A stretch of DNA of 64,000 bases from Roseomonas sp. (GCA_020249435.1 JADCFQ010000020.1:20522-84521), one strand, 5' to 3'; counted from the first letter of the stretch, positions 1 to 53,569 are shown. The notes: generated from the sequence alone by a model not told the origin. Numbers and translations: made by a program.

Positions 1-49
1 CCAGCCTGTGGCAAGATGGCGGGCGAACCTAGGAACAGGAGTCCCCGCC

Positions 50-466
50 ATGCCCCCCGTGCCCGATATCAGCCCCAAGGATACCTGGGATGCCTTGGCC
101 GCCGATCAGGACGCCGTGCTGATTGATGTGCGCACCGATGCGGAATGGAACTTTGTTGGCCTGCCGGACCTGATGGCACTTGGCAAGCAAGTCGTGCTGA
201 TTCCCTGGCAAATGTATCCCTCCATGCAGGTGAATGGCGGCTTTGCCGAGGATTTGCAGGCGGCGGGGCTGACGCCTGGGCAGAAGCTTTATTTCATCTG
301 CCGGTCGGGGGCGCGGTCTCAATCCGCGGGGCAGGCCGCGCAGGCGGCGGGCTTTGCCCACGCCTTCAATGTGGCGGATGGGTTTGAAGGCCCGGTGGAT
401 GGCGCAGGGCATCGCGGCAGTGCTGCCGGGTGGAAGGCATCCGGCTTGCCCTGGCGGCAGCGCTGA
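50..466 (+). CDS. Rhodanese-like domain sulfurtransferase
   Basis: LIDVRT..EW motif and active-site loop FICRSGARS; AGGAG upstream of ATG 50 (track starts at GTG 8). Confidence 0.85.
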   Translation: MPPVPDISPKDTWDALAADQDAVLIDVRTDAEWNFVGLPDLMALGKQVVLIPWQMYPSMQVNGGFAEDLQAAGLTPGQKLYFICRSGARSQSAGQAAQAAGFAHAFNVADGFEGPVDGAGHRGSAAGWKASGLPWRQR

Positions 467-481
467 ACCACGGCGTATCAG

Positions 482-1393
482 CTAAAAGGCAAAGAGGCTC
501 AGTATATCCTCAAGGCTGGCCGTGCCGGTCAGGATCACATCATCCCCCGCGCCGCCGAAAACGGTGTCATCGCCCCCCCAGACGGTGATGGTGTCATGCC
601 CATCACCACCCCAAGCCAGGTCGCGATCATCCCAGGCGTCAATCACATCATCGCCGACACCGCCTGCCAGCGTGTCATCACCATCGCCACCAATGAGCGT
701 ATCCGCACCATCGCCACCCGAGACACTGTCATTCCCGCGGTCGCTCAGCAGCCAATCATCGCCGGCATCGCCCGCGAGCACATCATCACCATCCTCGCTG
801 GTGACACTGTCATTGCCCGAGCCGCCAAAAATACGGTTGTGGCCAACCCCGCCCAAAAGACTATCGGCGCCATCACCGCCATCCAGCCAATCCTGCCCCT
901 CGGCGCCGAGCAGGGTTTCCGCAGCGGCGCCCGATGATAAGGTGTCATCGCCCGCGCCACCATCAGCGGCGCCGAGCATAACGCCAAGCCGCCCGTCAAA
1001 CAGGTCATCCCCGTCCGCTAGCAGCACCGCGCCTTCGATCAAACCGGCATTATGGACCTGATCCGCATAGGCGCTGCCGGTGATGGCGTAACGCCCATCC
1101 GTGGCATGGCCGCCTTCGGCAAGTGTCAGGAAAAGGCGATTGGTGATGGTGCCCTGGTTGTAAAGTTCAAAGCGCCATTCGGCTGAAATCGCGATATCAG
1201 CGGCGCTGACCACGCCCTGCTGCCACAGGATGCTCGGCGCAATTTCAGGCAGAGCTTGCGCGCCAAATTGCTGCATAGGGGCTTGGGGAGCGGCGAAATG
1301 AATGGCTCTGCCGTAATCCCAATCGCTTTCGAATAGCCCTGAAAGCGAATTGGTCTGTCCGGGGGCGAGAAGCAGCCGCGCGAAATTGATCAT
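482..1393 (-). CDS. RTX/hemolysin-type Ca2+-binding repeat protein
   Basis: Many GGxGxDxL nonapeptides (GGAGDDTL, GGDGADSL, GGSGNDSV, GGDGDDTL) in the C-terminal half; no signal peptide. Confidence 0.85.
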   Translation of the reverse strand: MINFARLLLAPGQTNSLSGLFESDWDYGRAIHFAAPQAPMQQFGAQALPEIAPSILWQQGVVSAADIAISAEWRFELYNQGTITNRLFLTLAEGGHATDGRYAITGSAYADQVHNAGLIEGAVLLADGDDLFDGRLGVMLGAADGGAGDDTLSSGAAAETLLGAEGQDWLDGGDGADSLLGGVGHNRIFGGSGNDSVTSEDGDDVLAGDAGDDWLLSDRGNDSVSGGDGADTLIGGDGDDTLAGGVGDDVIDAWDDRDLAWGGDGHDTITVWGGDDTVFGGAGDDVILTGTASLEDILSLFAF

Positions 1394-1693
1394 GGAACAC
1401 CCGCATGGCGGCCGGCCTGTCCCGAACCGGGGCGGCAGCCTTCACTGGGTGGGACCAGGATTGTCACGAATGGCTCCTTGAGCGTGTTATTCAGATGTCA
1501 TTAACATTCTTTGAAAAGAGATAAAAAACAAGCCTAAAATTCAATGCATCATTAAATATTTGGTCGGCCATAAACCTGAAGTTGAAAGTATTTTCTCCAT
1601 CTCGACTGTGGCGGTTTTCGATGCCTGCTGCGCTGCCCCTCCCTGGCAAAGCGCAGGCCGCCGAGGCATCATGTACCGGAAGGAGAAACGCCC

Positions 1694-2161
1694 ATGACCC
1701 CATTGCCCCTGCAATCCGAATATATGTTCCGCATGACGCTTGGCGTCGGCACCCCGCAAATGATCGGTGCGACTCGCAATGGCGAACTCCGCATCGTGCC
1801 GGTGACGGGTGGCACGGTTGTGGGGCCGAAGCTCACTGGCGAAATCATGCCGGGATCGGCGGCGGATTGGCTGCGCGTGGACCCCGATGGCTCGGCGCAG
1901 ATTGATGTGCGGCTGACCATTCGCGCTGCCTCCGGCAGCATGGTCTATGCCGCCTATAATGGCATTCGCCATGGCTCACCGGCAGCGCTGGCGAGGCTCG
2001 CGGCGGGTGAAACCCTTGACCCTTCCGAGATCTATTTTCGCACGCTGATCCGCTTTGAAACCGGCGCGGCTGATCTGGCTTGGATGAACAAGATCGTGGC
2101 TGTCGGTGTGGGCCAGCGCCCGCCAAGCGGGCCATGTTATGATGTCTACGCGGTGAAATAG
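1694..2161 (+). CDS. DUF3237-family protein
   Basis: 155 aa with LRIVPVTGG-x-V-x-GPKL-x-GEI-x-PG-x-AADW and YFRT-x-x-RFETG motifs; AGGAGA RBS. Confidence 0.75.
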   Translation: MTPLPLQSEYMFRMTLGVGTPQMIGATRNGELRIVPVTGGTVVGPKLTGEIMPGSAADWLRVDPDGSAQIDVRLTIRAASGSMVYAAYNGIRHGSPAALARLAAGETLDPSEIYFRTLIRFETGAADLAWMNKIVAVGVGQRPPSGPCYDVYAVK

Positions 2162-2172
2162 GCGGCGCCCCG

Positions 2173-2847
2173 TCAGCGCCGCGCGGCCAATTGCTTATTT
2201 TCAAGCCGGCTGAGCAAGCGCACCACGGGCCAAAGCAGAATAAAGTAAATGATCGCCGCCGCAACAATCGGCGATGCGTTATAGGTGACACTTTGCGCCT
2301 GCCGCGCCTGGAACAGCAATTCGGGCAGCGCTACGACTGATGCGATGGAGGTAAGCTTCACCACCTCCAGCGTATTGGAAATGAGATCAGGCAGCACATT
2401 GCGCACGGCCTGGGGCAACACAATGAAGCGCATGGTCTGCGCCGAAGTCAGCCCCGTGCTGCGTGCGGCTTCCACCTGGCCGCGGGGGACGCTTTCAATG
2501 CCGGCGCGCAGAATCTCGCCGTAATAGGCGCCAGTGTTCAGGAAAAACCCAATCGCCACCGCGCTCCAGGCGCTGATCTCGAGGCCCAGAAACGGCAGGC
2601 CGGCGAAGATAAAAATCAGCAGCACCAAAGGCGGCAAGGCGCGAAATGTATCCACCCAAACCCGGAGCGGCCAGCGCACCCAGGCATGGGGCAGGGTGGA
2701 CAGCACCGCCAGAATAATCCCCCCCAAAAGCCCGAGCGGCACCACCAGCAGCGACAGCAACAATGTGGCACGCAGCCCCTGCCAAAGAATGGGGGAGGCC
2801 TCGCGCATGATCTCCCAATTCAGAAAGGCTTCAAGGAAATCCTGCAT
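2173..2847 (-). CDS. Polar amino acid ABC transporter permease
   Basis: EAA motif (GQVEAARSTGLT), FRALPPLV, hydrophobic helices; operon context. Confidence 0.9.
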   Translation of the reverse strand: MQDFLEAFLNWEIMREASPILWQGLRATLLLSLLVVPLGLLGGIILAVLSTLPHAWVRWPLRVWVDTFRALPPLVLLIFIFAGLPFLGLEISAWSAVAIGFFLNTGAYYGEILRAGIESVPRGQVEAARSTGLTSAQTMRFIVLPQAVRNVLPDLISNTLEVVKLTSIASVVALPELLFQARQAQSVTYNASPIVAAAIIYFILLWPVVRLLSRLENKQLAARR

Positions 2848-2849
2848 GC

Positions 2850-3530
2850 TCAGCGCTTCCAGGCAAAGCGCGTTTCAATCCAGCGGCCCAGCAGGACCAC
2901 GGGAAAGAACAGCACCAGATAGGCCAGCGCGCCGAGTGTCAGCGGCGATGGGTTGAAGGAATGGGAAAGCCCGGAACTCGCCGCGCCCAGAATATCCGGC
3001 ACCGCCACCACGGAAGCGAGCGCCGTGCCCTTGGTAATCGCAATGGTGCGGTTCGTCAGCGGCGGAATGGTGAGCCGTAGCGCCTGCGGCAGCACCACAT
3101 AGCCCAGCGCTTGCAGGAAATTGAGCCCCGTGGAGCGCGCCGCTTCCCATTGCCCCTTTGGCACGCTGGTAATGCCGGCCCAGAAAATCTCCTCCGAAAA
3201 CGCCATCAGCACCAAAGTCAGCGCAAGCCAGGCAGAGGCAAAGCCGGAAAGCTCCATCCCCATGCTGGGCAGGCCAAAGAATAGCAGCACGATGATGACG
3301 AGCGGCGGCAGAGCGCGGAACAAATCCACCAGAAAAATAATCAGCCAATTGAGCGGCCGTACCTGAAGCGCACGCAGCACCGCCAGCGCAAGCCCAGCGA
3401 TCAACCCGGCGGCGATGATGCAAAGGGCGAGTACAATCGTCAGCCCAAAGCCTTCAATGATCTTCGGCAGGTATTGCGCCATGACGCGCGCATTGAAGAA
3501 GCTGTCGGTAAAGCGTTCCCAGCCGGTCAT
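2850..3530 (-). CDS. Polar amino acid ABC transporter permease
   Basis: EAA motif (GQWEAARSTGLN); paralogue of the neighbouring permease. Confidence 0.9.
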   Translation of the reverse strand: MTGWERFTDSFFNARVMAQYLPKIIEGFGLTIVLALCIIAAGLIAGLALAVLRALQVRPLNWLIIFLVDLFRALPPLVIIVLLFFGLPSMGMELSGFASAWLALTLVLMAFSEEIFWAGITSVPKGQWEAARSTGLNFLQALGYVVLPQALRLTIPPLTNRTIAITKGTALASVVAVPDILGAASSGLSHSFNPSPLTLGALAYLVLFFPVVLLGRWIETRFAWKR

Positions 3531-3536
3531 GATGGC

Positions 3537-4283
3537 TCAGTGCCGCTCAACCTGGCTGATGAAGGCGCGGAGCCTCTCATGGCGCGGTGCGCTGAAAATT
3601 TCGGCCGGTGGGCCTTGTTCCAGAATCTCGCCATCGGCCATGAAGACCACGCGATCCGCGGCGGCGCGGGCGAAGCTCATTTCATGGCTGACCACCACCA
3701 TGGTCATGCCGTCTTCGCGCAATTCGCGCATCACCGCCAGAACGCCGCCGACCAATTCCGGGTCAAGCGCGCTGGTCGGTTCATCAAACAGCATGACGCG
3801 CGGTTCAAGCGCGATGGACCGCGCAATGGCAACGCGCTGCTGCTGACCGCCGGAAAGCTGATTGGGGTAATGATCCGCACGATCCGCCAGATGCACGCGA
3901 TCCAAAGCGCGCTGCGCCCGTGCTTCGGCTTCTGCCTTGTCCAGCCCCTGCACCTTGCGGAGTGCGAGCATGACATTCCCAAGCGCCGTCATATGCGGAT
4001 AGAGGTTGAAGGATTGGAACACCATGCCAATCCGCTGCCGCGCCTTGTTGATATCCGTGCGCGCATCCAACATGTCTATGCCATCAACGATGATGGAACC
4101 GCTTGATGGTTCCTCCAACCGGTTCAGGCAGCGCAGCAGGGTGGATTTGCCGGACCCGGATGGCCCGATCACGAAGACAAGCTGGCGTTCTTCCACCGTG
4201 AAATCCACGCCCCGCAACACATGCAGGGCGCCGAAATGCTTATGGATGGCGCGCGCTTCAATAATGGGGCGGGCGGGGGTCAT
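3537..4283 (-). CDS. Polar amino acid ABC transporter ATP-binding protein (GlnQ-like)
   Basis: Walker A GPSGSGKS, signature LSGGQQQR, Walker B MLFDEPT; start could be 4283 or 4298. Confidence 0.92.
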   Translation of the reverse strand: MTPARPIIEARAIHKHFGALHVLRGVDFTVEERQLVFVIGPSGSGKSTLLRCLNRLEEPSSGSIIVDGIDMLDARTDINKARQRIGMVFQSFNLYPHMTALGNVMLALRKVQGLDKAEAEARAQRALDRVHLADRADHYPNQLSGGQQQRVAIARSIALEPRVMLFDEPTSALDPELVGGVLAVMRELREDGMTMVVVSHEMSFARAAADRVVFMADGEILEQGPPAEIFSAPRHERLRAFISQVERH

Positions 4284-4311
4284 GCCCGCCGCGCCCATAC
4301 GTTAAACGGCA

Positions 4312-5148
4312 TCAGCAGCGCGGATTCTGCGGCGTCGGGTCATAGCCCGGTAGATCGGGCGGACCATAGCCCGGGAATTCCATCACCTCTGCCTGATCCG
4401 GGCCCGGACGATTGCCAAACCATTTTTCGGAAAGCGTCGCAATGGTGCCATCGCGCTTCATGCAGGTCAGCACATCTTCCACCTGGTTGCGCATGGCGGC
4501 GCTATCCTTGCGGAAGGGTGTACCCCAATGCATGCGCGTACCGGGGAGCACGAAATCCGCGATGTATTGCGGCGTGCGAGACGCTGAATACCGCACCACC
4601 GTATTGCCGGACAGGTTGGCATAGGCGCGACCCTGGATCACCGCCTGCACCGCATCGGGCTGCGTATCAAAGGCAAGCAGGGTCAGGTTCAGGCGCTGCG
4701 CATTGGCCGTAACCCAGTTTTCATAGGGCGTGCCCTTGTTCACGCTGATGGTCTTGCCGCGCAGATCTTCCTCGGACTTGATCGGCGGCGTGCCGCGGCG
4801 GATGCCGAACTGCAATTCGGTCCAGATATAGCCTTCGGTGAACAGCAGCGCTTCGGCACGCGCCGGCGTGACCGTGGTCGGTGCGCAAAGGAAGTCGTAG
4901 CGCCCCGCATTCATGGCCGGAATAAGGCCGGAGAAGGACGCGCTTTCGATCACAATCTCCCGCCCCATCCGCTTCGCGACTTCGCGGAACAGGTCAATCT
5001 GGAACCCCTGCACGCCCCCCTGGAGCGAGGGGAAGGCATGGGGGGCGAAAGTGCCATCAACGCCGCAGCGGAGCGGCGGTTGCCCCTGGGCCAGGGCAGG
5101 GCCGGCAAGGGCAGCGGAAAGCAAGGCAGCGGCCAGGAAACGGCGCAT
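4312..5148 (-). CDS. Amino acid ABC transporter substrate-binding protein (SBP_bac_3 type)
   Basis: Signal peptide, GFQIDL, FSGLIPAM..GRYD; strong AAGGAGG RBS. Confidence 0.9.
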   Translation of the reverse strand: MRRFLAAALLSAALAGPALAQGQPPLRCGVDGTFAPHAFPSLQGGVQGFQIDLFREVAKRMGREIVIESASFSGLIPAMNAGRYDFLCAPTTVTPARAEALLFTEGYIWTELQFGIRRGTPPIKSEEDLRGKTISVNKGTPYENWVTANAQRLNLTLLAFDTQPDAVQAVIQGRAYANLSGNTVVRYSASRTPQYIADFVLPGTRMHWGTPFRKDSAAMRNQVEDVLTCMKRDGTIATLSEKWFGNRPGPDQAEVMEFPGYGPPDLPGYDPTPQNPRC

Positions 5149-5303
5149 GGGAACCTCCTTTTTTATGCATTCGGACTGGAGGACACTCTCAGATGTGGGG
5201 GCTTCTGTCCATGGCGGCTTGCCACGAAACTGCCTTGCTCTGGTCGCGCTGCTGCCCCGCTGGGCAGGTTTAAGAAAAGCCTGAACGATACGTGAGCAGG
5301 TAG

Positions 5304-5489
5304 ATGTTTGCCCTTGGATTGATTGGTGCTGGTGTGCTGTGTGATCTGGTGCTGGTAGCGCTTTTGCTGGGCGATGCCACGGCGCCAGCGCGTTTTTCGC
5401 ATGCTGCGGTGGCGCTGCTGGCGCTCTGCGGTGGTGGGTTGAAGCTTGGCGGCATGATGCTTTTGGAACCGCGCCGCCGGGCGGGGTGA
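5304..5489 (+). CDS. Small hypothetical membrane protein
   Basis: 61 aa with two hydrophobic stretches and a basic C-terminus; fills the gap between two minus-strand genes. Confidence 0.4.
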   Translation: MFALGLIGAGVLCDLVLVALLLGDATAPARFSHAAVALLALCGGGLKLGGMMLLEPRRRAG

Positions 5490-5503
5490 GGGGGTGCCCC
5501 GCG

Positions 5504-7642
5504 TCACAATTTGGCGAATTGATCCTTGAGGAACGCGTCCAAGGCCACGATCAGGCTTTTATCCGCGTAAAGCGCTTCCTTCCGCTGACCCAATTCTTCG
5601 CGCATGGCCTGGCGGCGTTCCGACTCCTGCCCCAGGGCAATAAGCTTCTGCACCATCTCATTCGTATCGCGCGCGATGGCGGATGGCATGCCCATCATTT
5701 GGAACATGGCATAGCTATGCCGCCCCCGCATGAAGGCGCCAGGGCAGGTAATGAGCGGCACGCCCGCTTCAGTGGCGCCGAGGGTGGTATTGCCGCCGCT
5801 CCAACCCAGTGAATCCACCAGCACATCCATCTGCCGCGTGAGGGCATCGAATTCTGCGCCATTCATGCGGGGCAGGAAAACCACATGCTCGGCGGCTGAA
5901 AGCCCCACCTTGGCGAAGGCGGCATCCAGGCGGGTGCGGGTAATGCCGGTCATATGCGGCGACATGCCTTCAATGAAGACGAACAGCGCCTTTGGCACCT
6001 CGGCCGCGATGCGCGGCAGAATGTCATCATAGCGCGGCAGGTATTTGAACAGCGATTGCAGGCAGCCATAAAGCACGCGCCCTTCGGGCAGCGGAAAATC
6101 CTTGGTCAGCGGCGCCGTGTTTCCAGGCTCCAAGTAAAGCGCCAGATTGGGCAGGCGGATTAGTTTCTCCGAATAATGCGAAGCGGCATCATCCGGTTCC
6201 ATCAGATCGCTCGATAAATAGAAATCCATCGCCGGCGAACCGCTGGTGACGGGGTGGCCCCAGGCGGTGAATTGAATGGGCGCGATGCGATGCAAGGAAA
6301 GAATGCGGCTTGAAGGTGTCATGCCGATATCGGGCAGCATGAGGAAATCCAGATCATCGGCACGCATGGCGGCGATGGTCTTGGCCAGGCTGCCCGCATC
6401 AAAGGAAAGCCGCCGATGTGTGCCCAATTCAGCAAAACCATCGGAAACATCATCATGTAGGCCGTGAAAGGCGTAAGAAAAGAACTGATAATCCGGCGGC
6501 AGATGCTTGAGCCAGGGCAGCGCCCAGCTTGATCCGTTATGGCGATAGAGATTTTCTGAAGCGATACCGAAACGGATGGGGCCTGGCTTGCGCGGTCCCT
6601 CTCGCGCTGGGCGATCAGGGATGGCCAGCATGTGCGTGAGGCAATCGGAAAGAAGCCGGTTCGGCTCAATATCGTTTTCCTGCTGATACGCGATGTAGAA
6701 GCCGTGTGAGCCATAAGCGACGGCCTTGAAGGCCGCCGATGCGGCGGCGCTCCGCGGGCAATCTTCAGCAAGCAGGTCATGAGCCCGGTGCAGTTCAGCG
6801 AGAAGTTCCCTACGCCTTTCACTGATTTCTGCCTCACTGTCATAAATGGCGGGTAGCAGATTTGCGGTATTCACTGCTGTACAGATTGCTTGGATGCGGT
6901 CTGCCTTTTTTTCTGTGGCAGTCATCAGTGTGATAGAACGCCTGAGTGCAATATCCGCTTCCTTCCTTCGGCCAAGCGCCCCCCAGGCTTGCCCCAGAAG
7001 CTTCTGCGGTTGTGGGTCATTCGGGCGGAGAGCAAGGGCGTTTTCGAAAGCTGTCAGTGCGTCCTCTGGCTTGCTCAATTCAAGCAAAATCTCGCCCTTG
7101 CGGAAATAAGCGGTGTGGTAATCGGGGCGTAACGCCAGGGCCTTGTCCAGGGCTTGCAGCGCAGCATGATATTCATGCCCGTCATAAAGTAAGGAAGCGT
7201 AATTGGCGTGGATCAGCGCATTGTCCGGTTGCAGCGCGATGGCGCGATGATAGCTTTCTCGTGCTTCCTTTGGGCGCTTTGCCTCTCGCAGCAAATTCGC
7301 GCGATTATGATGCGCGCTGGCGAAATCTGGCTTGGCCGCGATGGCTTTATCGAAACATTCCAGGGCTTCGTCGGTTTGCTCCAATTTTTGATACGCAATC
7401 CCGAGATTCGTCAGCACCGGTGCGTCATTGCCGCGCAGCGCCAAGGCGCGCCGGATCAGCTTGACCGCATCGCGATAGGCTTCCTGCTGCAAGGCCACCA
7501 CGCCACAAAGCTGCAGCGCGTTGAAGTTGCGCGGATCGCGCGCGATGATGCTTTCATATTTACGCCGCGCCTCCTTGAAATTGCCCTGCTGTTGCAAGGC
7601 AAGTGCGGCTTGCAGCATGGCAGCATGCGGGTCAGCCGCCAT
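5504..7642 (-). CDS. TPR-containing O-GlcNAc-transferase-like (GT41/SPINDLY family) protein
   Basis: About 7 N-terminal TPRs; C-terminal GT41-type motifs IQFTAWGHPVTSG, DFYLSSDLMEP, EKLIRLP, SGGNTT..GVPLIT. Confidence 0.8.
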   Translation of the reverse strand: MAADPHAAMLQAALALQQQGNFKEARRKYESIIARDPRNFNALQLCGVVALQQEAYRDAVKLIRRALALRGNDAPVLTNLGIAYQKLEQTDEALECFDKAIAAKPDFASAHHNRANLLREAKRPKEARESYHRAIALQPDNALIHANYASLLYDGHEYHAALQALDKALALRPDYHTAYFRKGEILLELSKPEDALTAFENALALRPNDPQPQKLLGQAWGALGRRKEADIALRRSITLMTATEKKADRIQAICTAVNTANLLPAIYDSEAEISERRRELLAELHRAHDLLAEDCPRSAAASAAFKAVAYGSHGFYIAYQQENDIEPNRLLSDCLTHMLAIPDRPAREGPRKPGPIRFGIASENLYRHNGSSWALPWLKHLPPDYQFFSYAFHGLHDDVSDGFAELGTHRRLSFDAGSLAKTIAAMRADDLDFLMLPDIGMTPSSRILSLHRIAPIQFTAWGHPVTSGSPAMDFYLSSDLMEPDDAASHYSEKLIRLPNLALYLEPGNTAPLTKDFPLPEGRVLYGCLQSLFKYLPRYDDILPRIAAEVPKALFVFIEGMSPHMTGITRTRLDAAFAKVGLSAAEHVVFLPRMNGAEFDALTRQMDVLVDSLGWSGGNTTLGATEAGVPLITCPGAFMRGRHSYAMFQMMGMPSAIARDTNEMVQKLIALGQESERRQAMREELGQRKEALYADKSLIVALDAFLKDQFAKL

Positions 7643-8341
7643 TCAACGCTCCACCCGCCTGTCATCCATGCCGCGAAACACGATCAACTCGCGCTTGGCA
7701 CGCTCCGCTTCGGGCAGCGCAAGCCAGGCCAAAAACTCCCCCATCACCCGCGCCGTGATGGTCGCGACATTATGGGCATGCGCCGCTTCCGGGCTGTACC
7801 AGCCAAGCTTTTCCAATTCGCCCGAACCTTTTATCTCCCCATGCACCGCTTCCGCCGGCGCCACCAAAAACCGCGCATGAAAGCGAATGGGCCGGCCCGT
7901 TGGCGTAATGGCGCGGCACAAATAATCCAAGGCGCCGAGCGCCGCCGCGACACCATCACCGCGCTTTTCGCCTAAAACGAGCCCGGTTTCCTCAAACAAT
8001 TCCCGCGCTGCTGCAATGCCAAGCGCGCGCGCCCGCGCTGGCGTCGCGCGCCGTTCCAGCAAGCGCCTGGGCTCCGCACGTAGCTCACTGATCGCAGGGC
8101 CGCGATGATCATCAGGATCAACGCGCCCACCGGGAAAGACCATCACATCAGGCATGAAGCGATGCCCGGCATGGCGCTTGCCCATCAGCAATTCTGGCCC
8201 TTTGCGGCTTTGGCGCCAGACAATCAGGCTGGAAGCATCGCGCGGGCGCGCGGTGCGGGCGCGCGGGCTCCGCTTGCCTTCAGCATCGGCACCACCGGGA
8301 TTATCGGCGGTCGGGTCTTCGCGACGCGGGCGGTCAGTCAA
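7643..8341 (-). CDS. NUDIX hydrolase
   Basis: FPGGRVD...AAARELFEETG Nudix box; probable TTG start at 8341 overlapping the nitroreductase stop (track extends to 8503). Confidence 0.85.
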   Translation of the reverse strand: MTDRPRREDPTADNPGGADAEGKRSPRARTARPRDASSLIVWRQSRKGPELLMGKRHAGHRFMPDVMVFPGGRVDPDDHRGPAISELRAEPRRLLERRATPARARALGIAAARELFEETGLVLGEKRGDGVAAALGALDYLCRAITPTGRPIRFHARFLVAPAEAVHGEIKGSGELEKLGWYSPEAAHAHNVATITARVMGEFLAWLALPEAERAKRELIVFRGMDDRRVER

Positions 8342-9146
8342 GGTCAAACCCCCGGCTCCGCAACCAGGCGCGGAAGCCAAAGCGCTCCGGCACCGATAAT
8401 TGACGCGCGGCGTTTTCGGACCAGGTGCAGCCTTCCGGCGCCGGCCCATGGATTTCCGGATAGCGCGGCTTTTGCCGAGGGCGCAGCGCATCATAAGCGT
8501 CAATGGCTTCCGCTTCCGCCGCGCTGGAATAGGCTTCGCGATGGATCACGACAGATGGCGGCAGGCGCTGCGTGATGTCATTGCGCGCTGCCGGCCAGCC
8601 GAGTGAAAGCCCCGCCACCGGATAAACCCCTTTCGGCAGCGCAAACAAAGGTGCCACTTTTTCGATATGGCTGCGCACATAGGAAATGGGGCAGGTGCCG
8701 AGCCCCGCTGCCTCAGCCGCCGCAATCGTGGCACCAAGCGCCAATGCCGCATCCACCGCCGTATTCAGGAAAGTGTCCATATTGTTGTTGGCGTGTTCGT
8801 GCCCATGGCGCGCGCAAGCGGCCTGGCCGCGCCGCATATCGCCGCAGAAAATCAGCAGCACCGGCGCATCCTTGATCCAGGGCATGGTGCCGATCCAATC
8901 GGCAACCTTGGCGATCTTTACCGGATCACGCGTCACGATGATCGAATATTGCTGCAAATCGGATTTGGAAGGTGCTGATTGCCCCGCCGCCAATACCGTA
9001 TCCAATAGCGCATCAGTCACTGCCTCAGCGGCATAGCGGCGCGTCACGCGCCGATCCAATAGCGCCGCAAGCGCGGGCGGAATCGCCTCGGGCGGGGTGA
9101 AGGGCAGGGCGCCGTAGCGGGCGCGGATCAGGTCTTCGGGCTTCAT
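8334..9146 (-). CDS. NfsA/Frp-like nitroreductase (flavin reductase)
   Basis: RRVTRRY, SAPSKSDLQQYSII, GLGTCPIS, RLP motifs; start MKPED at 9146. Confidence 0.85.
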   Translation of the reverse strand: MKPEDLIRARYGALPFTPPEAIPPALAALLDRRVTRRYAAEAVTDALLDTVLAAGQSAPSKSDLQQYSIIVTRDPVKIAKVADWIGTMPWIKDAPVLLIFCGDMRRGQAACARHGHEHANNNMDTFLNTAVDAALALGATIAAAEAAGLGTCPISYVRSHIEKVAPLFALPKGVYPVAGLSLGWPAARNDITQRLPPSVVIHREAYSSAAEAEAIDAYDALRPRQKPRYPEIHGPAPEGCTWSENAARQLSVPERFGFRAWLRSRGFDLD

Positions 9147-9171
9147 CACGCCAAACTGGCACCGCGCGGCA

Positions 9172-11229
9172 TCAAGGGGAAGCGGGCACCACCCAGGCAT
9201 CCGCCACCGTGACGCCCTGGCCTTCGGCAAGGATGATCAGCGGGTTGATTTCCGCCTCGGCCACGCCCGGATGGGCCGCGAGGCGCGATGCCGCCACCAC
9301 CGCGCGCGCCAGCGCATCCAAATCGCCGCGCGGCAGCCCGCGCCAGCCGGCGAGGGGTTTCAGCCCCTTCACCTCCGCGATCATGGCCCGCGCTTCTGCC
9401 TCATCCACCGGGGCGAGGCGAAGCGCCGTATCGCGGTGCAATTCCGCCATGATGCCGCCAGCGCCGACCAGGATGATGGGCCCTGCCTCCGGGTCTCGCC
9501 GGAAGCCGATGATCGCCTCAGCCAGGCCCTTCACCATGGGCTGCACCAAAAACCCAGTGATGCGCGCCGCCGGGGCGCGGGCCCTGACGCGTGTCAGCAT
9601 CGCAGAGGCCTCGGCCTCCAGCGCCACCGGATCGGGAATATTGAGCGCCACGCCAGCCACTTCTGTCTTATGCGCCAGATCGGGCGAGAGGATCTTGAGC
9701 GCCACAGGATAACGCAGCCCTGCGGGCACCGCATCGGGCGCGGCCATGACGGCAAAGGGGCTATCCAGGCCGAAAGCCGCGAAAAGCCGGCGCGCGTCAG
9801 CCTCATCAGGATGGGCCGGCGTGGTTTGGCTGATGGTGGGCGCTGCGGCCTCGGTGCGCGGCGCACGCCAATCGAAAAAGGCGCGGATCACATCGGCGCA
9901 GGATTCCGGCGTGCGGAAGGCAGGGATGCCGGCCTCTCCCAACAGCCGGAGCGACGCATCGGCCTGCGGCACCAGAAAGGCCGCGATGGGTTTGCCAAGC
10001 CCTGCCTTCACCGCGCCGGTAATTCCCGCCACCGCATCATGCGGGCGGAATTGCGCGGAAGACCCGACCACGGAAAGCACCATATCCGTGCCCGCATCGG
10101 CGGCGAGGGCTGAAAGCGCCGCCTCCACCTTATCGGCGCGCGTGCCCGCCAGCGTCACATCAATCATCCGCCCATGATGCGGCAGGCCAGCGGCTTCCAG
10201 CCCGGCCACGGCAGCGGCATCGGGCGGGCAGGTTTCAATGCCGACAACGCCCAAGGCATCCACCGCCATGGCACCACCACCACCCGTGGTGGTCATGACG
10301 GAAATGGTGCGTCGCGGATTGGCCAAGGGCTTCCGCCCAATGAACAAGGCAGGCGCTTCCAACAGCGCTTCAATCATCGTCACGCGCGCAATGCCATTGG
10401 CACGGAAGAAGGCATCCGCCGCCGCATCCGACCCCGCCAGCGCGCCCGTATGGCTGCCCGCCAGCTCCGCGCCGAAGCTTGAACGGCCAAGCTTGAAGGC
10501 AATGATCGGTTTGCCGAGTTCATGGGCGCGGCGCGCTGCGGCGGCGAGTTTTTCCGGCGCGCGAATCGCTTCCAGAAACAACAGCACCGCATCAACGCCC
10601 GGGTCTTCCACCAGCATGCCGGCGATTTCACTCGCGGTCAGATCGGCCTCATTGCCGGTGCCGATCAGATGCGAAAAGCCGATCCCGCGCGGTGCGCCGC
10701 GCGCCATGATGGCACCCATCATGGAACCGGATTGCGAAACGAGCGCGATGCGCCCGGCGGGCAGGCTATCGGCTTCCAGCGCCGCATTCACCGAACAGGC
10801 GGTGCGCGCGTTCAGATTGACCAGGCCCATGGAATTGGGGCCGAGCAGCCGCACCCCTGCCGCTTTCGCTGTCGCCAACAGTCTTTCCTGCAAGGCGCGG
10901 CCTTCCGGCCCGGCTTCGGCAAAACCATCAGCCAGAATGGCGGCGACAGGGATGCGCTTTTCGGCAACCGCTGCGATCTGCCCTTCCACATGCTGCGTAC
11001 CCAGCAGCAGATAAGCGAGATCAATCTCCCCCGGCACATCGGCCAGGCGCGGATAGGCGCGTTCGCCAAGGATGGTCTCTGCGCTTGGATTGATTGGGAA
11101 AAGCTCACCAGTAAAGCCATGCTTGCGCAGATAGACCTGCGCGCGCGCGGTCAGGCGCTTCGGGTCCGATGATCCGCCAATCAGCGCAATGCGGCGCGGG
11201 TTGAGCAGGGCAGAGGCAAGGCGATCCAT
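9172..11229 (-). CDS. ADP-forming acyl-CoA synthetase (acetate--CoA ligase family)
   Basis: CoA-binding N-terminus, LLGPNSMG, SQSG, phospho-His motif SHTGALAG, C-terminal ATP-grasp (PVALKI..HKTEVAGV, EINPL). Confidence 0.9.
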   Translation of the reverse strand: MDRLASALLNPRRIALIGGSSDPKRLTARAQVYLRKHGFTGELFPINPSAETILGERAYPRLADVPGEIDLAYLLLGTQHVEGQIAAVAEKRIPVAAILADGFAEAGPEGRALQERLLATAKAAGVRLLGPNSMGLVNLNARTACSVNAALEADSLPAGRIALVSQSGSMMGAIMARGAPRGIGFSHLIGTGNEADLTASEIAGMLVEDPGVDAVLLFLEAIRAPEKLAAAARRAHELGKPIIAFKLGRSSFGAELAGSHTGALAGSDAAADAFFRANGIARVTMIEALLEAPALFIGRKPLANPRRTISVMTTTGGGGAMAVDALGVVGIETCPPDAAAVAGLEAAGLPHHGRMIDVTLAGTRADKVEAALSALAADAGTDMVLSVVGSSAQFRPHDAVAGITGAVKAGLGKPIAAFLVPQADASLRLLGEAGIPAFRTPESCADVIRAFFDWRAPRTEAAAPTISQTTPAHPDEADARRLFAAFGLDSPFAVMAAPDAVPAGLRYPVALKILSPDLAHKTEVAGVALNIPDPVALEAEASAMLTRVRARAPAARITGFLVQPMVKGLAEAIIGFRRDPEAGPIILVGAGGIMAELHRDTALRLAPVDEAEARAMIAEVKGLKPLAGWRGLPRGDLDALARAVVAASRLAAHPGVAEAEINPLIILAEGQGVTVADAWVVPASP

Positions 11230-49585: not shown

Positions 49586-49661
49586 GCCCAGATAGCTCAG
49601 TTGGTAGAGCATGCGACTGAAAATCGCAGTGTCGCTGGTTCGATTCCGGCTCTGGGCACCA
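49586..49661 (+). tRNA. tRNA-Phe (GAA)
   Basis: 76 nt cloverleaf: acceptor GCCCAGA/TCTGGGC, D-arm TAGCTCAGTTGGTAGAGC, anticodon loop CTGAAAA, T-loop TTCGATT, encoded CCA. Confidence 0.98.
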
Positions 49662-49665
49662 TTTC
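49644..49665 (+). repeat. att core, tRNA side (TTCCGGCTCTGGGCACCATTTC)
   Basis: Identical to 53548-53569; spans the end of the T-loop to just past CCA. Confidence 0.93.
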
Positions 49666-49715
49666 AATGCCCTAGCGCGTTGAAATCAAACGATTTCCAA
49701 AATCTCAGGGCGATT

Positions 49716-49736
49716 TCCCCCACACCCTCCCCCACA
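49716..49736 (+). promoter_or_regulatory. Putative integrase arm-type sites (TCCCCCACA x2)
   Basis: Direct repeats at 49716 and 49728 (12-bp period); the same pair occurs at 53397/53409. Confidence 0.65.
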
Positions 49737-49921
49737 CTTGGCGCCCGGTAGGGGTGGGGAAGGCTCCCCCGCGCGCGTGTTTTGTAGGCCGGGAAATTGC
49801 GCCTCAGTCACCCGCGCGCGCGTGTTTTCCGGCCTTCCCGCGCCCCGCGCGCGCGTAGGTTGCCTGCCATGGGCGCCGGTTCCGCCTCCGCGCGCGAGGT
49901 TTCGTGGGGCGGTGGGGCGCT

Positions 49922-50821
49922 TCAATGCTTCGGGCAGGGCAAGCCAAGCCATGCGGCGGCCTCGGCTACCACCGGCCTTACATCGGCCTCGAAGGCATCC
50001 CACAAGGCGTGATGTTCGGGCGGGCTTTCGTCCCCGGTTTCCGGCAAGGCTTCGCGCCTCAGGGCCAGCGCGTCTAGTCGCGTGAATAGGCGCAGCGCTT
50101 CGGCCTCGCCACCGGCAAGGCGCCGTTGCAGGGCTTCCGATAAGCGCCAGGCGGCGTGATGTTCATCCGTCTTTCGGAGTTCCATACCACGGGCGCACCA
50201 CTCCCACTTATCGCGCAAGCCCGGCTTTATGCCGATGCTGCGCCACGTTATCAGGCGATGAACCCGCGCCACCGCTTCGGGCGAGACTGACAAGCCCGCG
50301 CTCCGGGCGGCCTCGGCTATCTTGGCGGCTTCGCGCTTCCCCTCTTCCAGGGCGAAGCGATATCCGGCCAAGTCTGAGCGATAGGCGTAAAGCTGCGCCA
50401 TGCGCTTTTTGCTTTCCGCTTCGCACCATTCCAAAAGCTGCGCCAGCGGTGGGAGCGTTTTCAGGGTTCGGCGCGCGCGTTGCGCCACCGCCCGCACAAT
50501 ATCGGCGCTGTATTCGGCCAAATCTTCGCCAGCGGCGGCGGCATAGGCTTCGGCGGTTATGCGCGCGTTCGGGAAAACCCCTACCAAGTGCCGCGCCACG
50601 TTTTCGGCGTAGTGTTGCCGGGCCTCGGCTTCATCCGGGTTTTCTTGCGCGGCGCGCCATGCCTCAAGCTGCGCCAGCGTGTTTTTCGCCACCTGCAGAA
50701 TATCCGGGTCTTCCAATTCATCCGGGGAAAGGCGCTCAGGCTTGCCGGTTTCTTCATCGCCCCAAAAATCCGGCGTCTTCGGAAATGTGGGAAGGGCTGG
50801 CGCGGTTTGTTTCTTCGTCAT
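49922..50821 (-). CDS. Hypothetical protein with a phage replicative-helicase-loader/inhibitor-like central region
   Basis: Segment VFPNA..AYAAAAGEDLAEYSADIVRAVAQRARRTLKTLPPLAQLLEWC; immediately downstream of the initiator-like gene; AGGGGG RBS before ATG 50821. Confidence 0.55.
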   Translation of the reverse strand: MTKKQTAPALPTFPKTPDFWGDEETGKPERLSPDELEDPDILQVAKNTLAQLEAWRAAQENPDEAEARQHYAENVARHLVGVFPNARITAEAYAAAAGEDLAEYSADIVRAVAQRARRTLKTLPPLAQLLEWCEAESKKRMAQLYAYRSDLAGYRFALEEGKREAAKIAEAARSAGLSVSPEAVARVHRLITWRSIGIKPGLRDKWEWCARGMELRKTDEHHAAWRLSEALQRRLAGGEAEALRLFTRLDALALRREALPETGDESPPEHHALWDAFEADVRPVVAEAAAWLGLPCPKH

Positions 50822-50831
50822 TTCGCGCCCC

Positions 50832-51356
50832 CTATATCCGGCTCGGGATGGAAGGCTTGCGCTTGCGCTTACTGCCAGCGCCAGCGCGCGGCGCGTCAGC
50901 AAAGCGCGCGTTAGCGCTGGTATACGGTTTCCCTACATTTTCATTACGGGATACCTGTTCGGGGGGTTGTAGAGCGCCCATTAAGGGCGCTCTGTGGCGC
51001 CCATCTAGGGGGCTGTAGGGCGCCCATGTGGGGCGCTCTGTGGCGCCCATTGCATCGATGTGCCCCGATACTTGCCCCGATAGCTCCGGCGCTGCGAGGG
51101 CGTATCCTTTCGCCCTTGATCGCGAAGGCGCGGGCGCAATGAAGCCCCGTTCTTCCAGGCCGCGAAGCGCGCGGCGGATTGTGCGGCGCTCCATCCGGAG
51201 CATTTCGGAGAGGCCCCGGCTTGAAGGCCAGGCCGCACCGCGCGCCTCGTTAAAATGTTCGGCAATCGCCACCGCCACCGCCAATTCGGCAAGCGTGGGG
51301 CGAGGATCAGCGGCGGCAACGGCGCGAAGCCATGCAAACCTTGTCGCAATCGACAT
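50832..51356 (-). CDS. HTH (HTH_36-like) phage replication-initiator-like protein
   Basis: AWPSSRGLSEMLRMERRTIRRALRGLEERGFI winged-HTH followed by a low-complexity region carrying DNA repeats. Confidence 0.7.
   Translation of the reverse strand: MSIATRFAWLRAVAAADPRPTLAELAVAVAIAEHFNEARGAAWPSSRGLSEMLRMERRTIRRALRGLEERGFIAPAPSRSRAKGYALAAPELSGQVSGHIDAMGATERPTWAPYSPLDGRHRAPLMGALQPPEQVSRNENVGKPYTSANARFADAPRAGAGSKRKRKPSIPSRI
50959..51050. repeat. Four 23-bp iteron-like repeats (putative origin)
   Basis: GCGCCCAT core at 50974, 50997, 51020, 51043; unit GGG(C/G)G(C/T)-N6-GCGCCC-AT. Confidence 0.8.
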
Positions 51357-51472
51357 AGGCGGCAATCCTTTGGGAAGGCCCCTTGCCAGCCGTGCCGCGA
51401 ATTGCTACTTTTCTTTGTGACGCAAAGACTTTTCGCAATTCTAGCCGCGCCTTGGCAACAGGGCGCGGTTCT

Positions 51473-51550
51473 CTATTGGGCGAAGCGCAGCAAGCCCGCG
51501 AGGGCCAGTAATGCGAGGGGCGCGGCAATCCATGCAATGCGGGCCATCAT
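51473..51550 (-). CDS. 25-aa hydrophobic micro-protein (MMARIAWIAAPLALLALAGLLRFAQ)
   Basis: ATG overlaps the Xis-like stop (ATGA); single TM-like helix. Confidence 0.45.
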   Translation of the reverse strand: MMARIAWIAAPLALLALAGLLRFAQ

Positions 51551-51750
51551 GGCGCCACCTTGAGGAATTGGCGTAGCGAATCGCCCGCGACCATCATGCG
51601 GCCACCGCAACGAAAAAGGCGCAAGGCGCCCTCTTTTCCTCGGCGGCGAAGGGTGGAAGGCGACAAGCCGGAAATCCGGCAAGCTTGCCTGAGGGTGAAG
51701 GAAAGGGCGCCCGGATGGGGCGCGGGCGCATCAGCGCGCAATCGTGGCAT
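51547..51750 (-). CDS. Excisionase/AlpA-like HTH DNA-binding protein
   Basis: FTLRQACRISGLSPSTLRRRGKEGAL...GGRMMV..DSLRQFL; GAGG before ATG 51750 (track GTG 51786). Confidence 0.75.
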   Translation of the reverse strand: MPRLRADAPAPHPGALSFTLRQACRISGLSPSTLRRRGKEGALRLFRCGGRMMVAGDSLRQFLKVAP

Positions 51751-51893
51751 GGGGTGCCTCGCGAGAAAGGGTTTGGGATGTCTCACGCTTTCGGTGCGCG
51801 GAACCTTTTCTCGCGTGTAGCGCCACGCGGCGGCGGGTCTATCTCACATGTAAGGCCATGCGGCGGCCAGGCGCCATGTGCGCTTGGCGTATT

Positions 51894-51921
51894 ATTATCA
51901 CTACGCGCCAACGCTGCGCAA
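51894..51921 (-). promoter_or_regulatory. Possible sigma70 promoter for the xis-rep operon
   Basis: Minus-strand TTGCGC-N16-GATAAT in the AT-richer int/xis spacer. Confidence 0.35.
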
Positions 51922-52010
51922 GTGTTTTCGTGCGTCTATTTCGTATTTCTCATTTAACGCGCCGTAAAGTTTCCAATACGCGGTTTTCGTTTCTCACCGG
52001 CTCTTAACAA

Positions 52011-53363
52011 TCACCGCACGGCGTTTCGCGCTTCGCCAATGTTCACCACCGGCGCGGCGGGCGTGACGCAATGGCGGCCCCATTGTTCCATCAGCCCTAC
52101 GCGGCGCTCGAATAAATCACTCCGGCGATACCGCCCGGCTACCTTGCTTGCGTCTTCATGCGCCAGCGCCTTTTCGGCGGCGTCCCGTTCCCCAGGGTGG
52201 CAATCATCGCACCATGTCCGGAAGCTTGCGCGCCAGCCGTGCGGCACCACCGGGCGCCCGGTGGGATCAACCCATTGCGGGCCATCCTTGCCTTCATTCA
52301 TGCGCCGGATCACGGCAGAAAGCGCCATATCCGTAAAGGGGCCGGTTCGGGATATGTTCGGGAATATCCAGCTATCGCCCGCAATCCGGGCCAGCTTGGG
52401 CAATTCGCCCGGCGCCACCGTCACGCCATGCGCCAGCCCATAGGCGCGGCATAAGGTTTCCAGCATGGCGGAAGATAGCGGGACGCGGTGGGGCGCGGGT
52501 TCGGAAAGGTTGCGGCCTTTCATCACCAAGCCCGGCACGGTTAGAACGGCTTGGCCCCCATCGAAGCTAATCCAATTCCAGCGCAGCGCGCGCGCTTCAC
52601 CGGATCGAAGGGCGCTTAGGGCGGCGAAGCGCAGCGCCACCGGGGCTAGGCCGGGCATCTTGTCCAAGGCTTCGAAAAATCCGGGCGCTTGGCGCCATGG
52701 CAGGGCAGGATGGCCTCGCTCCCCGGCTTGTTGCGTCAAGCCAAGGTGGCGCAAAATCCGAACATCGGCGGCGGTGGCATCGGCGCCCCATCCTTGCGCG
52801 GCGGCATAGCGCAAAACGGCGCCAATTCTGCGAAGCGTTTTGCGGGCGATAATCGGCTTTTTATGCCAGATCGGTTCTAGCGCATCCTTCACCATTTCCC
52901 GCGTGATGCTCGCCACCGGCTGTTTCATCAGCGGCGCGGCATGTAGTTTCAGGCTCGATTCCCACATATGCGCCGTGCGGGCGTTCTTCCATGAAGGCGC
53001 CTCGGCCTTAATCACCGCCTCGGCTACATTGGCGAAGACGCGGCGCTCGGCCTCTTCCTCGGCCTTGCGGGCGGTTTCCAGGGCCTTTGCAGCGGCACGG
53101 CGGGCCTTCACCGGATCAGCACCGCCAAGGGCTTCACGGCGGGCGGCAAGGGCCTTTATGCGGGCTTGGGCAAGTGTCACGGCAGGCCAGGGGCCAAGCC
53201 CCATGTCCCGGCGCTTTCCGGCAACCATAACGCGGGCCAGCCATACCTTTGCGCCGCTCGGCACGATTTCTAGCAAAAGCCCGCCCCCATCGCTCAGGCG
53301 GTATTTCCCGGCGCGGGGCTTGGCGGCTTCAACCGTCTTTGCGTCTAACTTTCCGTTCGGCAT
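52011..53363 (-). CDS. int: P4-type tyrosine integrase with arm-binding (DUF4102-like) N-domain
   Basis: N-terminal LSDGGGLLL...MGLGPWPAVTLAQAR; catalytic R (LRSGE), K (MK), HGWR, LAH, Y (GRY) all present. Confidence 0.95.
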   Translation of the reverse strand: MPNGKLDAKTVEAAKPRAGKYRLSDGGGLLLEIVPSGAKVWLARVMVAGKRRDMGLGPWPAVTLAQARIKALAARREALGGADPVKARRAAAKALETARKAEEEAERRVFANVAEAVIKAEAPSWKNARTAHMWESSLKLHAAPLMKQPVASITREMVKDALEPIWHKKPIIARKTLRRIGAVLRYAAAQGWGADATAADVRILRHLGLTQQAGERGHPALPWRQAPGFFEALDKMPGLAPVALRFAALSALRSGEARALRWNWISFDGGQAVLTVPGLVMKGRNLSEPAPHRVPLSSAMLETLCRAYGLAHGVTVAPGELPKLARIAGDSWIFPNISRTGPFTDMALSAVIRRMNEGKDGPQWVDPTGRPVVPHGWRASFRTWCDDCHPGERDAAEKALAHEDASKVAGRYRRSDLFERRVGLMEQWGRHCVTPAAPVVNIGEARNAVR

Positions 53364-53396
53364 GGCGCGGCCTCATAGGGTGGAACCATCAATTCT

Positions 53397-53417
53397 TCCC
53401 CCACAATATCCCCCACA
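53397..53417 (+). promoter_or_regulatory. Putative integrase arm-type sites (TCCCCCACA x2)
   Basis: Direct repeats at 53397 and 53409, upstream of int; match the left-arm pair. Confidence 0.65.
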
Positions 53418-53547
53418 ATCGGCCCTTGCAATGCCAAAACGGTTCTAAGCGTGTCAAAATGTGTTTTTCTTTGTGTTTCTAAGGAAAAACTGCGAATTTT
53501 CAGGCTGATTTCAGGGCGGTTTGAAACGGCTTGAAAGGGCAAAATGG

Positions 53548-53569
53548 TTCCGGCTCTGGGCACCATTTC
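53548..53569 (+). repeat. att core, distal side (duplicated tRNA-Phe 3' end)
   Basis: TTCCGGCTCTGGGCACCATTTC, identical to 49644-49665. Confidence 0.93.

Follow-up and report, generated by a model that had tools for sequence, protein, structure and literature searches.

What is the 3.9-kb segment that lies at the 3' end of a tRNA-Phe gene in Roseomonas sp., and is it a mobile element in its own right or the debris of a prophage? The segment is part of a 64,000-nucleotide (nt) stretch of DNA (GCA_020249435.1, JADCFQ010000020.1:20522-84521), here called the window, and all positions are counted from the first letter of that stretch. An earlier note, made from the sequence alone, had put it forward as a candidate new family of phage satellites or mini-replicons. 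Its sequence shows the segment to be an integrative element of 3,904 bp, site-specific and intact, that was inserted with precision at the 3' end of tRNA-Phe. It is probably a minimal member, lacking a small terminase subunit (TerS), of a new satellite family resembling the phage-inducible chromosomal islands (PICIs) and the phage-inducible chromosomal minimalist islands, or PICMIs, with a replicon like that of lambda O. Of the lifestyles considered, that of a phage satellite is the best reading, as the note had suggested, for relatives built on this backbone encode small terminases, a prohead protease or an entire head module.

The element and its insertion

A repeat finder identified a perfect 22-bp direct repeat, TTCCGGCTCTGGGCACCATTTC, whose two copies lie 3,904 bp apart, start to start. 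The left copy covers the final 18 nt of tRNA-Phe(GAA), the one tRNA that ARAGORN found in the 64-kb window, and the 3' end of the tRNA is thus rebuilt by the attachment (att) site copy of the element. Near each end there is one pair of arm-type tandem decamers, TTCCCCCACA n4 TCCCCCACA, and these sites are kept at both arms of three relatives (L005, L019 and L032). All of the long open reading frames (ORFs) between the repeats are on the minus strand, in the order int, HTH_17, 25-aa peptide, HTH_36, 299-aa X, and none of the genes is interrupted by a stop or a frameshift. The G+C content is indistinct from that of the flanks. No match to a capsid, terminase, primase, helicase or relaxase was found in the element with Pfam, PHROGs, NCBIfam or PADLOC. 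The att duplication, intact integrase, arm repeats, one-strand cassette and internal iterons described in the earlier note are all present in the sequence. The features of the element and its target are as follows.

49586-49661, plus strand: tRNA-Phe(GAA), the integration target (ARAGORN; Rfam RF00005, 71.7 bits)
49644-49665: attL core, the 22-bp repeat TTCCGGCTCTGGGCACCATTTC; a perfect repeat, the same core flanking the sibling element L032
49715-49742: tRNA-proximal pair of arm-type sites, TTCCCCCACAcccTCCCCCACA (repeat finder)
49755-49890: empty slot after X, a GC-rich and strongly structured spacer of about 100-135 bp, where siblings have a TerS gene with or without a lipoprotein gene
49922-50821, minus strand: gene X, 299 aa, conserved partner of the initiator, with a putative replication accessory or loader role
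50832-51356, minus strand: gene for an HTH_36 winged-helix initiator-like protein, 174 aa from ATG (177 aa from TTG at 51365)
50925-50958: relatively A+T-rich patch, GAACAGGTATCCCGTAATGAAAATGTAGGG, adjoining the iterons; a candidate unwinding region
50959-51050: array of four iterons of 23 bp, ATGGGCGCCnnAnAGCnCCC nnn as read along the gene strand, within the 3' half of the HTH_36 gene; a candidate origin
51473-51550, minus strand: ORF for a 25-aa hydrophobic micro-peptide, MMARIAWIAAPLALLALAGLLRFAQ, overlapping the HTH_17 stop codon
51547-51750, minus strand: gene for an HTH_17 (AlpA/Xis/MerR-like) DNA-binding protein, 67 aa, candidate excisionase or activator
51751-52010: intergenic stretch separating int from the HTH_17 operon, of lower G+C and presumed to be regulatory from its sequence
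52011-53363, minus strand: P4-type tyrosine integrase, 450 aa (Pfam; phrog_1, 1.2e-35)
53396-53423: int-proximal pair of arm-type sites (repeat finder)
53548-53569: attR core, where the 22-bp repeat recurs (repeat finder)

The left flank through 49665 was joined in silico to the right flank from 53570. With three congeners (G031, G028 and G019) the joined flanks form an unbroken alignment of 1.9 kb at 85-87% identity, and in these species tRNA-Phe directly adjoins a NADH-dehydrogenase-like gene. These genomes therefore have an empty attB at this position, and the insertion was precise. At the empty site the left flank ending ...GGTTCGATTCCGGCTCTGGGCACCATTTC is joined to CCCTGAAAACCCGAAAATTAATC, and the predicted junction of the excised circle is ...GGCAAAATGG + TTCCGGCTCTGGGCACCATTTC + AATGCCCTAGCGCGTTG. 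A sigma-70 promoter scan of the element gave nothing above chance and no consensus.

Mobility and selection

Closely related copies are found elsewhere. In another genome of the same genus (G025, locus L005), an element 88% identical in nucleotide sequence from the att site through the end of X lies in tRNA-Thr(TGT), flanked by its own 17-bp duplication, TGGTGCCGGGTGAGGGA. Two contigs from metagenome-assembled genomes (MAGs) labelled Roseomonas (L019 and L020) hold further copies in tRNA-Thr, and a metagenome contig (L032) has a 4.5-kb version at tRNA-Phe, with the same 21-bp core and a distal flank unrelated to that of the window. Copies 88-95% identical are thus located in tRNA-Thr or in another tRNA-Phe context. 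Between the window and the G025 copy, the ratio of non-synonymous to synonymous substitution rates (dN/dS) has values of 0.27 (int), 0.03 (HTH_17), 0.34 (HTH_36) and 0.32 (X), from which we conclude that all of these genes are under purifying selection. Taken together, the empty sites, the sibling copies at other sites and the dN/dS values indicate that the element is mobile and is not prophage debris, in agreement with the note's argument against random prophage decay. Terminal overlap, as a sign of a free circle, was absent from L032, L035, L034, L021 and L005.

It is worth adding that one G025 contig (L028, C209, CAMCZJ010000209.1) is titled 'MAG: Asaia bogorensis', yet it belongs to the GTDB genus of the window genome. 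Its nearest protein matches are labelled Roseomonas sp., and the Asaia bogorensis label is probably wrong or outdated.

The family and the slot after X

By gene content and order, the elements with this backbone make up a family of 3.9-6 kb members that is rare and unannotated. The hosts are Roseomonas-like Acetobacteraceae and freshwater Alphaproteobacteria, and the layout is the same wherever the context is available: on one strand, a P4-type integrase, small genes including one of HTH_17 type, HTH_36 and X. This gene order, for which the note had proposed a search in other Alphaproteobacteria, is found in Acetobacteraceae and in freshwater lineages, and the claim of a new family is borne out by the signature protein X, for which Pfam, PHROGs, NCBIfam and PADLOC gave no match. 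The length of the element, where both ends are visible, is 3.9 kb (window), 4.5 kb (L032), 4.7 kb (L005), about 5.1 kb (L019) and about 6.0 kb (L034); L035 is possibly about 5.25 kb, its flanking repeat being weak. The window copy is the smallest known member of the family.

The slot after X is variable, and in four lineages it is occupied by phage packaging or head genes. In freshwater-lake contigs L022-L025, in which X is 47% identical, the slot holds a 166-aa small subunit of the Sf6_terminase type. In the nearest siblings (L005 and L019-L021, 88-90% identical in nucleotide sequence) it holds a protein of 128-143 aa. A profile of the homologues of this protein matches the oligomerisation core of small terminases of solved structure (7joq, from NV1, E 9e-6; 6w7t, E 2.4e-4), and in phage contigs of about 36 kb homologues about 60% identical lie after an HNH gene, directly upstream of a Terminase_6N large terminase subunit (TerL) gene and overlapping it. 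The 128- and 143-aa proteins have no BLASTP similarity to the Sf6-type TerS, so there are two unrelated types of TerS in this slot. The genes after X in L026 and L027 include a prohead-protease-like one (L026: phrog_4523, E 7.7e-20) and a weak TerS match. A full head module is present in L031 (IMGVR_UViG_3300049135_000109, 1-10745), which encodes TerL, HNH, portal, protease and major capsid proteins and has no tail genes. L031 has a 127-bp terminal overlap, from which its assembly gave a circle of about 10.6 kb, and it contains two initiator systems, the HTH_36-X pair and a Rep3. A search of its HTH_36 gene for internal iterons gave none.

In the window copy and in L032 the slot is empty. The homology of the siblings to the window breaks after the X stop codon, at about 49880-49890, and resumes at about 49754 (L005) or 49783 (L019). 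The spacer that takes the place of the sibling genes has a fold energy of -60 kcal/mol and is unique in the genome. The absence of a terminase reported in the earlier note therefore holds for the window copy and for one sibling (L032) and does not hold for the family, as the nearest siblings encode a TerS.

Some further observations concern this slot. Within the spacer, 49755-49870 contains two direct repeats ending CGCGCGCGTGTTTT, which read like plus-strand terminators just downstream of the tRNA. In the G025 sibling, the TerS gene is followed by an 88-aa lipoprotein-like ORF (L005, 4376-4642), which gives weak hints (E about 0.06) of similarity to an Rz-like spanin and to lipoprotein NF038104. 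Metagenome phage contigs of about 31-37 kb (L041, 10001-11636; L042, 7986-9621) have a 124-aa TerS homologue overlapping a Terminase_6N TerL, and phages of this type are a candidate helper-type lineage for the TerS-bearing siblings.

The replication module

The HTH_36 protein has a Pfam match above the cut-off (E 3.4e-7) and matches several PHROG families annotated as replication initiation (O-like), with E values from 2.9e-7 to 1e-3. The iterons inside its gene are found at the matching position, with the same 23-bp period, in seven lineages (L005, L019, L022, L026, L032, L034 and L035), between which the identity of X falls to 36-50%. Their sequence is lineage-specific, each unit being a dyad of the GGGGG-N8-CCCCC kind. 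The initiator with internal iterons that the note had described is thus real, and it is conserved across lineages. As period and position are conserved and sequence is not, the array would have a function at the level of DNA, co-evolving with the protein that binds it, and this points to the iteron array inside the HTH_36 gene as the origin. Beside it, the motif GAACAGGTA..TCCCG in the A+T-richer patch adjoins the iterons of L022 as well.

X lies directly downstream of HTH_36 wherever the context is available. In the window it starts 10 nt after the HTH_36 stop codon, and across the family there is either a gap of about 10 nt or a 4-nt overlap. AlphaFold2 gives a confident model, with a predicted local distance difference test score of 89.7, mostly helical with one β-hairpin. 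No fold match is significant: the best entry in BFVD, at E 0.01, is an uncharacterised phage protein, and G39P-like, replisome-organiser and lambda-P-like entries in BFVD reach E 0.5-3 only. No Pfam match to a P-like helicase loader (Phage_lambda_P or G39P type) was obtained for X at E <= 1, nor any other Pfam match at that level, and a profile search of the PDB returned a chance match. In a comparison with lambda P, the aligned stretch is limited to the most conserved motif of X, KTLPPLAQLLEWCEAE, against PFLPSPGQFVAWCREE in lambda P. The label 'loader-like' given to X in the earlier note is backed by gene order and by non-significant fold and profile hints; X might act as a loader, and its role is the weakest link of the mechanism proposed below.

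X is rare, with 23 clusters in a collection of 5.8 billion proteins, 73 clusters at 50% identity in a profile search of 1.84 billion representatives, and occurrences in 2 of 185,579 species representatives. The 73 clusters include no informative fused domains save an occasional PcrA/UvrD Tudor. This domain is at the C-terminus of some X homologues (P0015, P0020, P0022, P0025, and L026 at 10001-11089). In PcrA and UvrD, the Tudor domain tethers the helicase to RNA polymerase, and the homologues that bear it hint that X may be connected with transcription at the origin.

Proposed mechanism and helper

On the satellite reading, the P4-type integrase would bind the paired arm sites and the core and, with the HTH_17 protein, excise the element as a circle. 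The HTH_36 protein would then bind the four 23-bp iterons within its own gene, in the manner of lambda O, and together with co-translated X would start replication using host enzymes. A helper phage would package the amplified DNA. In the sibling elements, packaging would be redirected by their own small terminase; the window copy may be packaged by means of the TerS of the helper, or as headful concatemers like the PICMIs, or may be a poorly transmissible derivative. Excision, replication and packaging by a helper are all predicted, and the reliance on host DnaB put forward in the note is likewise putative.

Several observations weigh against this reading. The window copy has no packaging gene and no recognisable pac or cos site. 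The genome from which it comes (99% complete, in 62 contigs) has no PF05065 capsid (HK97 type, or that of the gene transfer agent RcGTA) and no PF03354 TerL, in a search that did not extend to all other terminase and capsid families, and tblastn with the TerL, portal, capsid and TerS genes of L031, L041 and L043 gave no match in it. On these results, a resident prophage or an RcGTA-type helper is unlikely; and as no resident helper was found, the helper, if there is one, would be a phage that comes in from outside, possibly one of the L041 type, which shares the NV1-like TerS family. The helper is a gap in the case for a satellite, and not evidence for it. Among virus sequences, the family was found in IMG/VR as the 7.8-kb L030 and the 10.7-kb L031 and in no small form, and phage and plasmid collections gave no member; X itself is unmatched in 50,697 phage records and in 72,556 plasmid records. 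For X, Foldseek found no significant relative (best E 1.2 in the PDB, best E 0.01 in BFVD), and hhalign gives a probability of 7% for similarity to lambda P. Finally, the Pfam match of the HTH_17 protein (E 5.3e-5, 23.8 bits) is below the 27-bit cut-off.

The helpers considered for the window genome itself were a gene transfer agent (GTA), which the earlier note had allowed for, and a resident prophage. Both were rejected, the GTA being unlikely in a genome with no HK97-type capsid or TerL, on the PF05065, PF03354 and tblastn results given above and with the same limit on the families searched.

Alternative explanations

The window copy could be a stranded derivative, which excises or replicates, has lost the TerS of its siblings, is poorly packaged and persists mainly by vertical inheritance. 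Such a history would fit the nearest siblings, which at 88-90% nucleotide identity carry TerS where the window copy has a spacer of about 135 bp, and it would fit the failure to detect a helper in the genome. However, all of the genes are intact and under purifying selection, and PICMIs are able to transfer without a TerS (PMC10803314). There is also a second variant without TerS, L032, with an integrase 93.6% identical in protein and 94.6% in nucleotide sequence, likewise in tRNA-Phe, which differs from the window copy in its distal flank and middle module. The form without TerS has therefore spread or recombined since the loss, and on balance we regard a stranded derivative as unlikely. A different possibility is that the element is no phage satellite and is an integrative mini-replicon, which excises and replicates in the manner of a small plasmid and moves by mobilisation through a mimic of an origin of transfer (oriT), in vesicles, by transformation or by generalised transduction. 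In favour of a mini-replicon, the functions of the window copy are limited to integration and replication, it lacks any phage hallmark gene, and it has no resident helper. But there is no relaxase or recognisable oriT, the domains of mobilisable or conjugative elements (relaxase, coupling protein) are absent from the element in Pfam and NCBIfam searches, X is unmatched in the plasmid records, and the backbone has been joined repeatedly to phage packaging or head genes and never to conjugation genes. We consider a mini-replicon of this kind decidedly unlikely.

The remaining alternative, a remnant left by internal deletion of a full prophage, is suggested by the integrase and by the lambda-like layout of the replication genes. 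The att sites are nevertheless perfect and the genes intact, and the relatives are either elements that measure 3.9-6 kb and have the two att sites or the tail-less, head-only element of 10.6 kb. The earlier note had named relatives that are full prophages as part of what would overturn its proposal, and none was found; the idea of a prophage remnant was rejected for this reason, and we rate it as highly improbable. The reading that we favour is thus still that of a minimal satellite without TerS.

Integrase and choice of target

The integrase has the three domains of a tyrosine recombinase, arm-binding, core-binding and catalytic (Arm-DNA-bind_3, 5.9e-21; Phage_int_M, 3.2e-17; Phage_integrase, 1.3e-6; all above the Pfam cut-offs), and a complete R-K-H-R-H-Y set of catalytic residues (R253, K282, H375, R378, H402 and Y412). 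NCBIfam PRK09692 matches it partially, with 71.9 bits against a cut-off of 434. It is the single P4-type integrase that tblastn finds in the window genome. In the relatives, the integrase gene is located at 293-1648 (L032), 393-1748 (L005) and 4724-6079 (L019).

Integrases of the family that are 87-89% identical in protein sequence use different tRNA genes, with the Phe core AAATGGTGCCCAGAGCCGGAA in one case and the Thr core TGGTGCCGGGTGAGGGA in the other. The Phe-type and Thr-type integrases are set apart by 21 substitutions, nine of which form clusters in the core-binding (Phage_int_M) domain, at residues 109-112 and 159-174. The two types are a natural pair for the study of how core specificity is switched.

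The HTH_17 gene and neighbouring small genes

The best start of the HTH_17 gene is the ATG at 51750, and its product matches the phrog_66 excisionase at E 0.008. The micro-peptide that follows was mentioned in the earlier note, and it too proves to be conserved across lineages: similar peptides of 25-29 aa come right after the HTH_17 gene in five further lineages (L005; L019 at 7266 and L020 at 2605; L032 at 2848-2937; L034 at 4149; L035 at 2881-2970). They are hydrophobic, form a single helix and have the common core xPLAxLxLAGxL. The ORF is probably a real gene. Possible roles of its product are those of a small membrane toxin, a regulatory peptide or an exclusion factor.

Two siblings, L020 (1533-2316) and L032 (1763-2555), have two extra genes between int and HTH_17, of 77 aa and 182-185 aa, which the window copy lacks. 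Neither has a match in Pfam or PADLOC, and they are possibly accessory or defence cargo.

Significance

The phage satellites known so far come mainly from Gammaproteobacteria, from Firmicutes and from a few Actinobacteria. In the main text of the SatelliteFinder survey (PMC10085698) the word Alphaproteobacteria has 0 occurrences. With the present family, the range of satellites would come to include Acetobacteraceae and freshwater Alphaproteobacteria, their known size limit would fall from about 6 kb (PICMI) to 3.9 kb, and there would be a replication module that known satellites do not use, consisting of an iteron initiator and an uncharacterised partner. The natural series on one backbone, with nothing in the slot, either type of TerS, a protease or a full head module, is useful for following the gain and loss of hijacking functions.

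A stronger statement is possible, though we would not count on it: that this is the smallest functional phage satellite so far, at 3.9 kb, in the first satellite family recognised in the Alphaproteobacteria, packaged by an incoming helper without a packaging gene of its own, by means of the helper TerS or as headful concatemers. Should that be true, the element would have kept only an integrase, an AlpA-like switch, the micro-peptide and a lambda-O-like iteron replicon with its new partner, and the siblings would display a step-wise gain and loss of two unrelated TerS, a protease or a whole head module on a single backbone.

Comparison with known systems

The replication module is most readily compared with that of phage lambda (NC_001416), in which four iterons lie inside O, and P overlaps the O stop codon. 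The element likewise has four dyad-like iterons, with a spacing in both of about 20-23 bp, inside a winged-helix initiator gene whose product is predicted to bind them, with an A+T-richer patch beside them and the next gene at or over the initiator stop codon. In contrast, the HTH_36 protein has no BLASTP similarity to lambda O, and it is shorter (174 aa against 299 aa). The layout of the capsid-forming PICIs (cf-PICIs) is seen in L031, which combines TerL, HNH, portal, protease and capsid genes, and no tail genes, with the HTH_36-X pair, whereas the window element has no head or terminase genes.

The PICI core, in the definition used by SatelliteFinder, is an integrase, a regulator (an AlpA, MerR or Stl homologue), a primase-replicase, capsid morphogenesis and TerS (PMC10085698). 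The element has the integrase. The place of the regulator would be taken by the HTH_17 protein, with its 23.8 bits against a 27-bit cut-off (E 5.3e-5) and its phrog_66 match at E 0.008. No primase-replicase was found in the element with Pfam or PHROGs, HTH_36 and X being in its place, and no capsid-morphogenesis gene was matched in either database; TerS is absent from the window copy and present in L005, L019-L021 and L022-L025. Like the Gram-negative PICIs, the family has on one strand an integrase, which is of P4 type, then a putative AlpA-type regulator, a replication module and, in the siblings, TerS at the far end. Unlike them, the element is without primase-replicase, capsid morphogenesis and terS, is integrated in a tRNA gene, has a signature protein X that is not in PICIs, and belongs to a size range of 3.9-6 kb as against a PICI median of 9.5 kb.

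The PICMIs of Vibrionaceae, which are a precedent for a satellite without a TerS, can do with int, alpA and prim alone, and virulent helpers package them in the form of concatemers (PMC10803314). The element is similar in being very small and on one strand, with int and a putative AlpA-like gene ahead of a replication gene, and in having no TerS, capsid-remodelling genes or resident helper, so that only excision and replication functions are kept. The differences are that PICMIs lie next to fis, encode a primase (prim), measure about 6 kb and are found in Gammaproteobacteria, whereas the element lies at tRNA-Phe, not next to fis, has HTH_36 and X and no primase, measures 3.9 kb and has siblings that carry TerS. 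Since it departs from the PICIs in primase-replicase, capsid morphogenesis and TerS, and from the PICMIs in the fis site and the primase, it is best filed as neither; it resembles both in its layout and in its presumed lifestyle.

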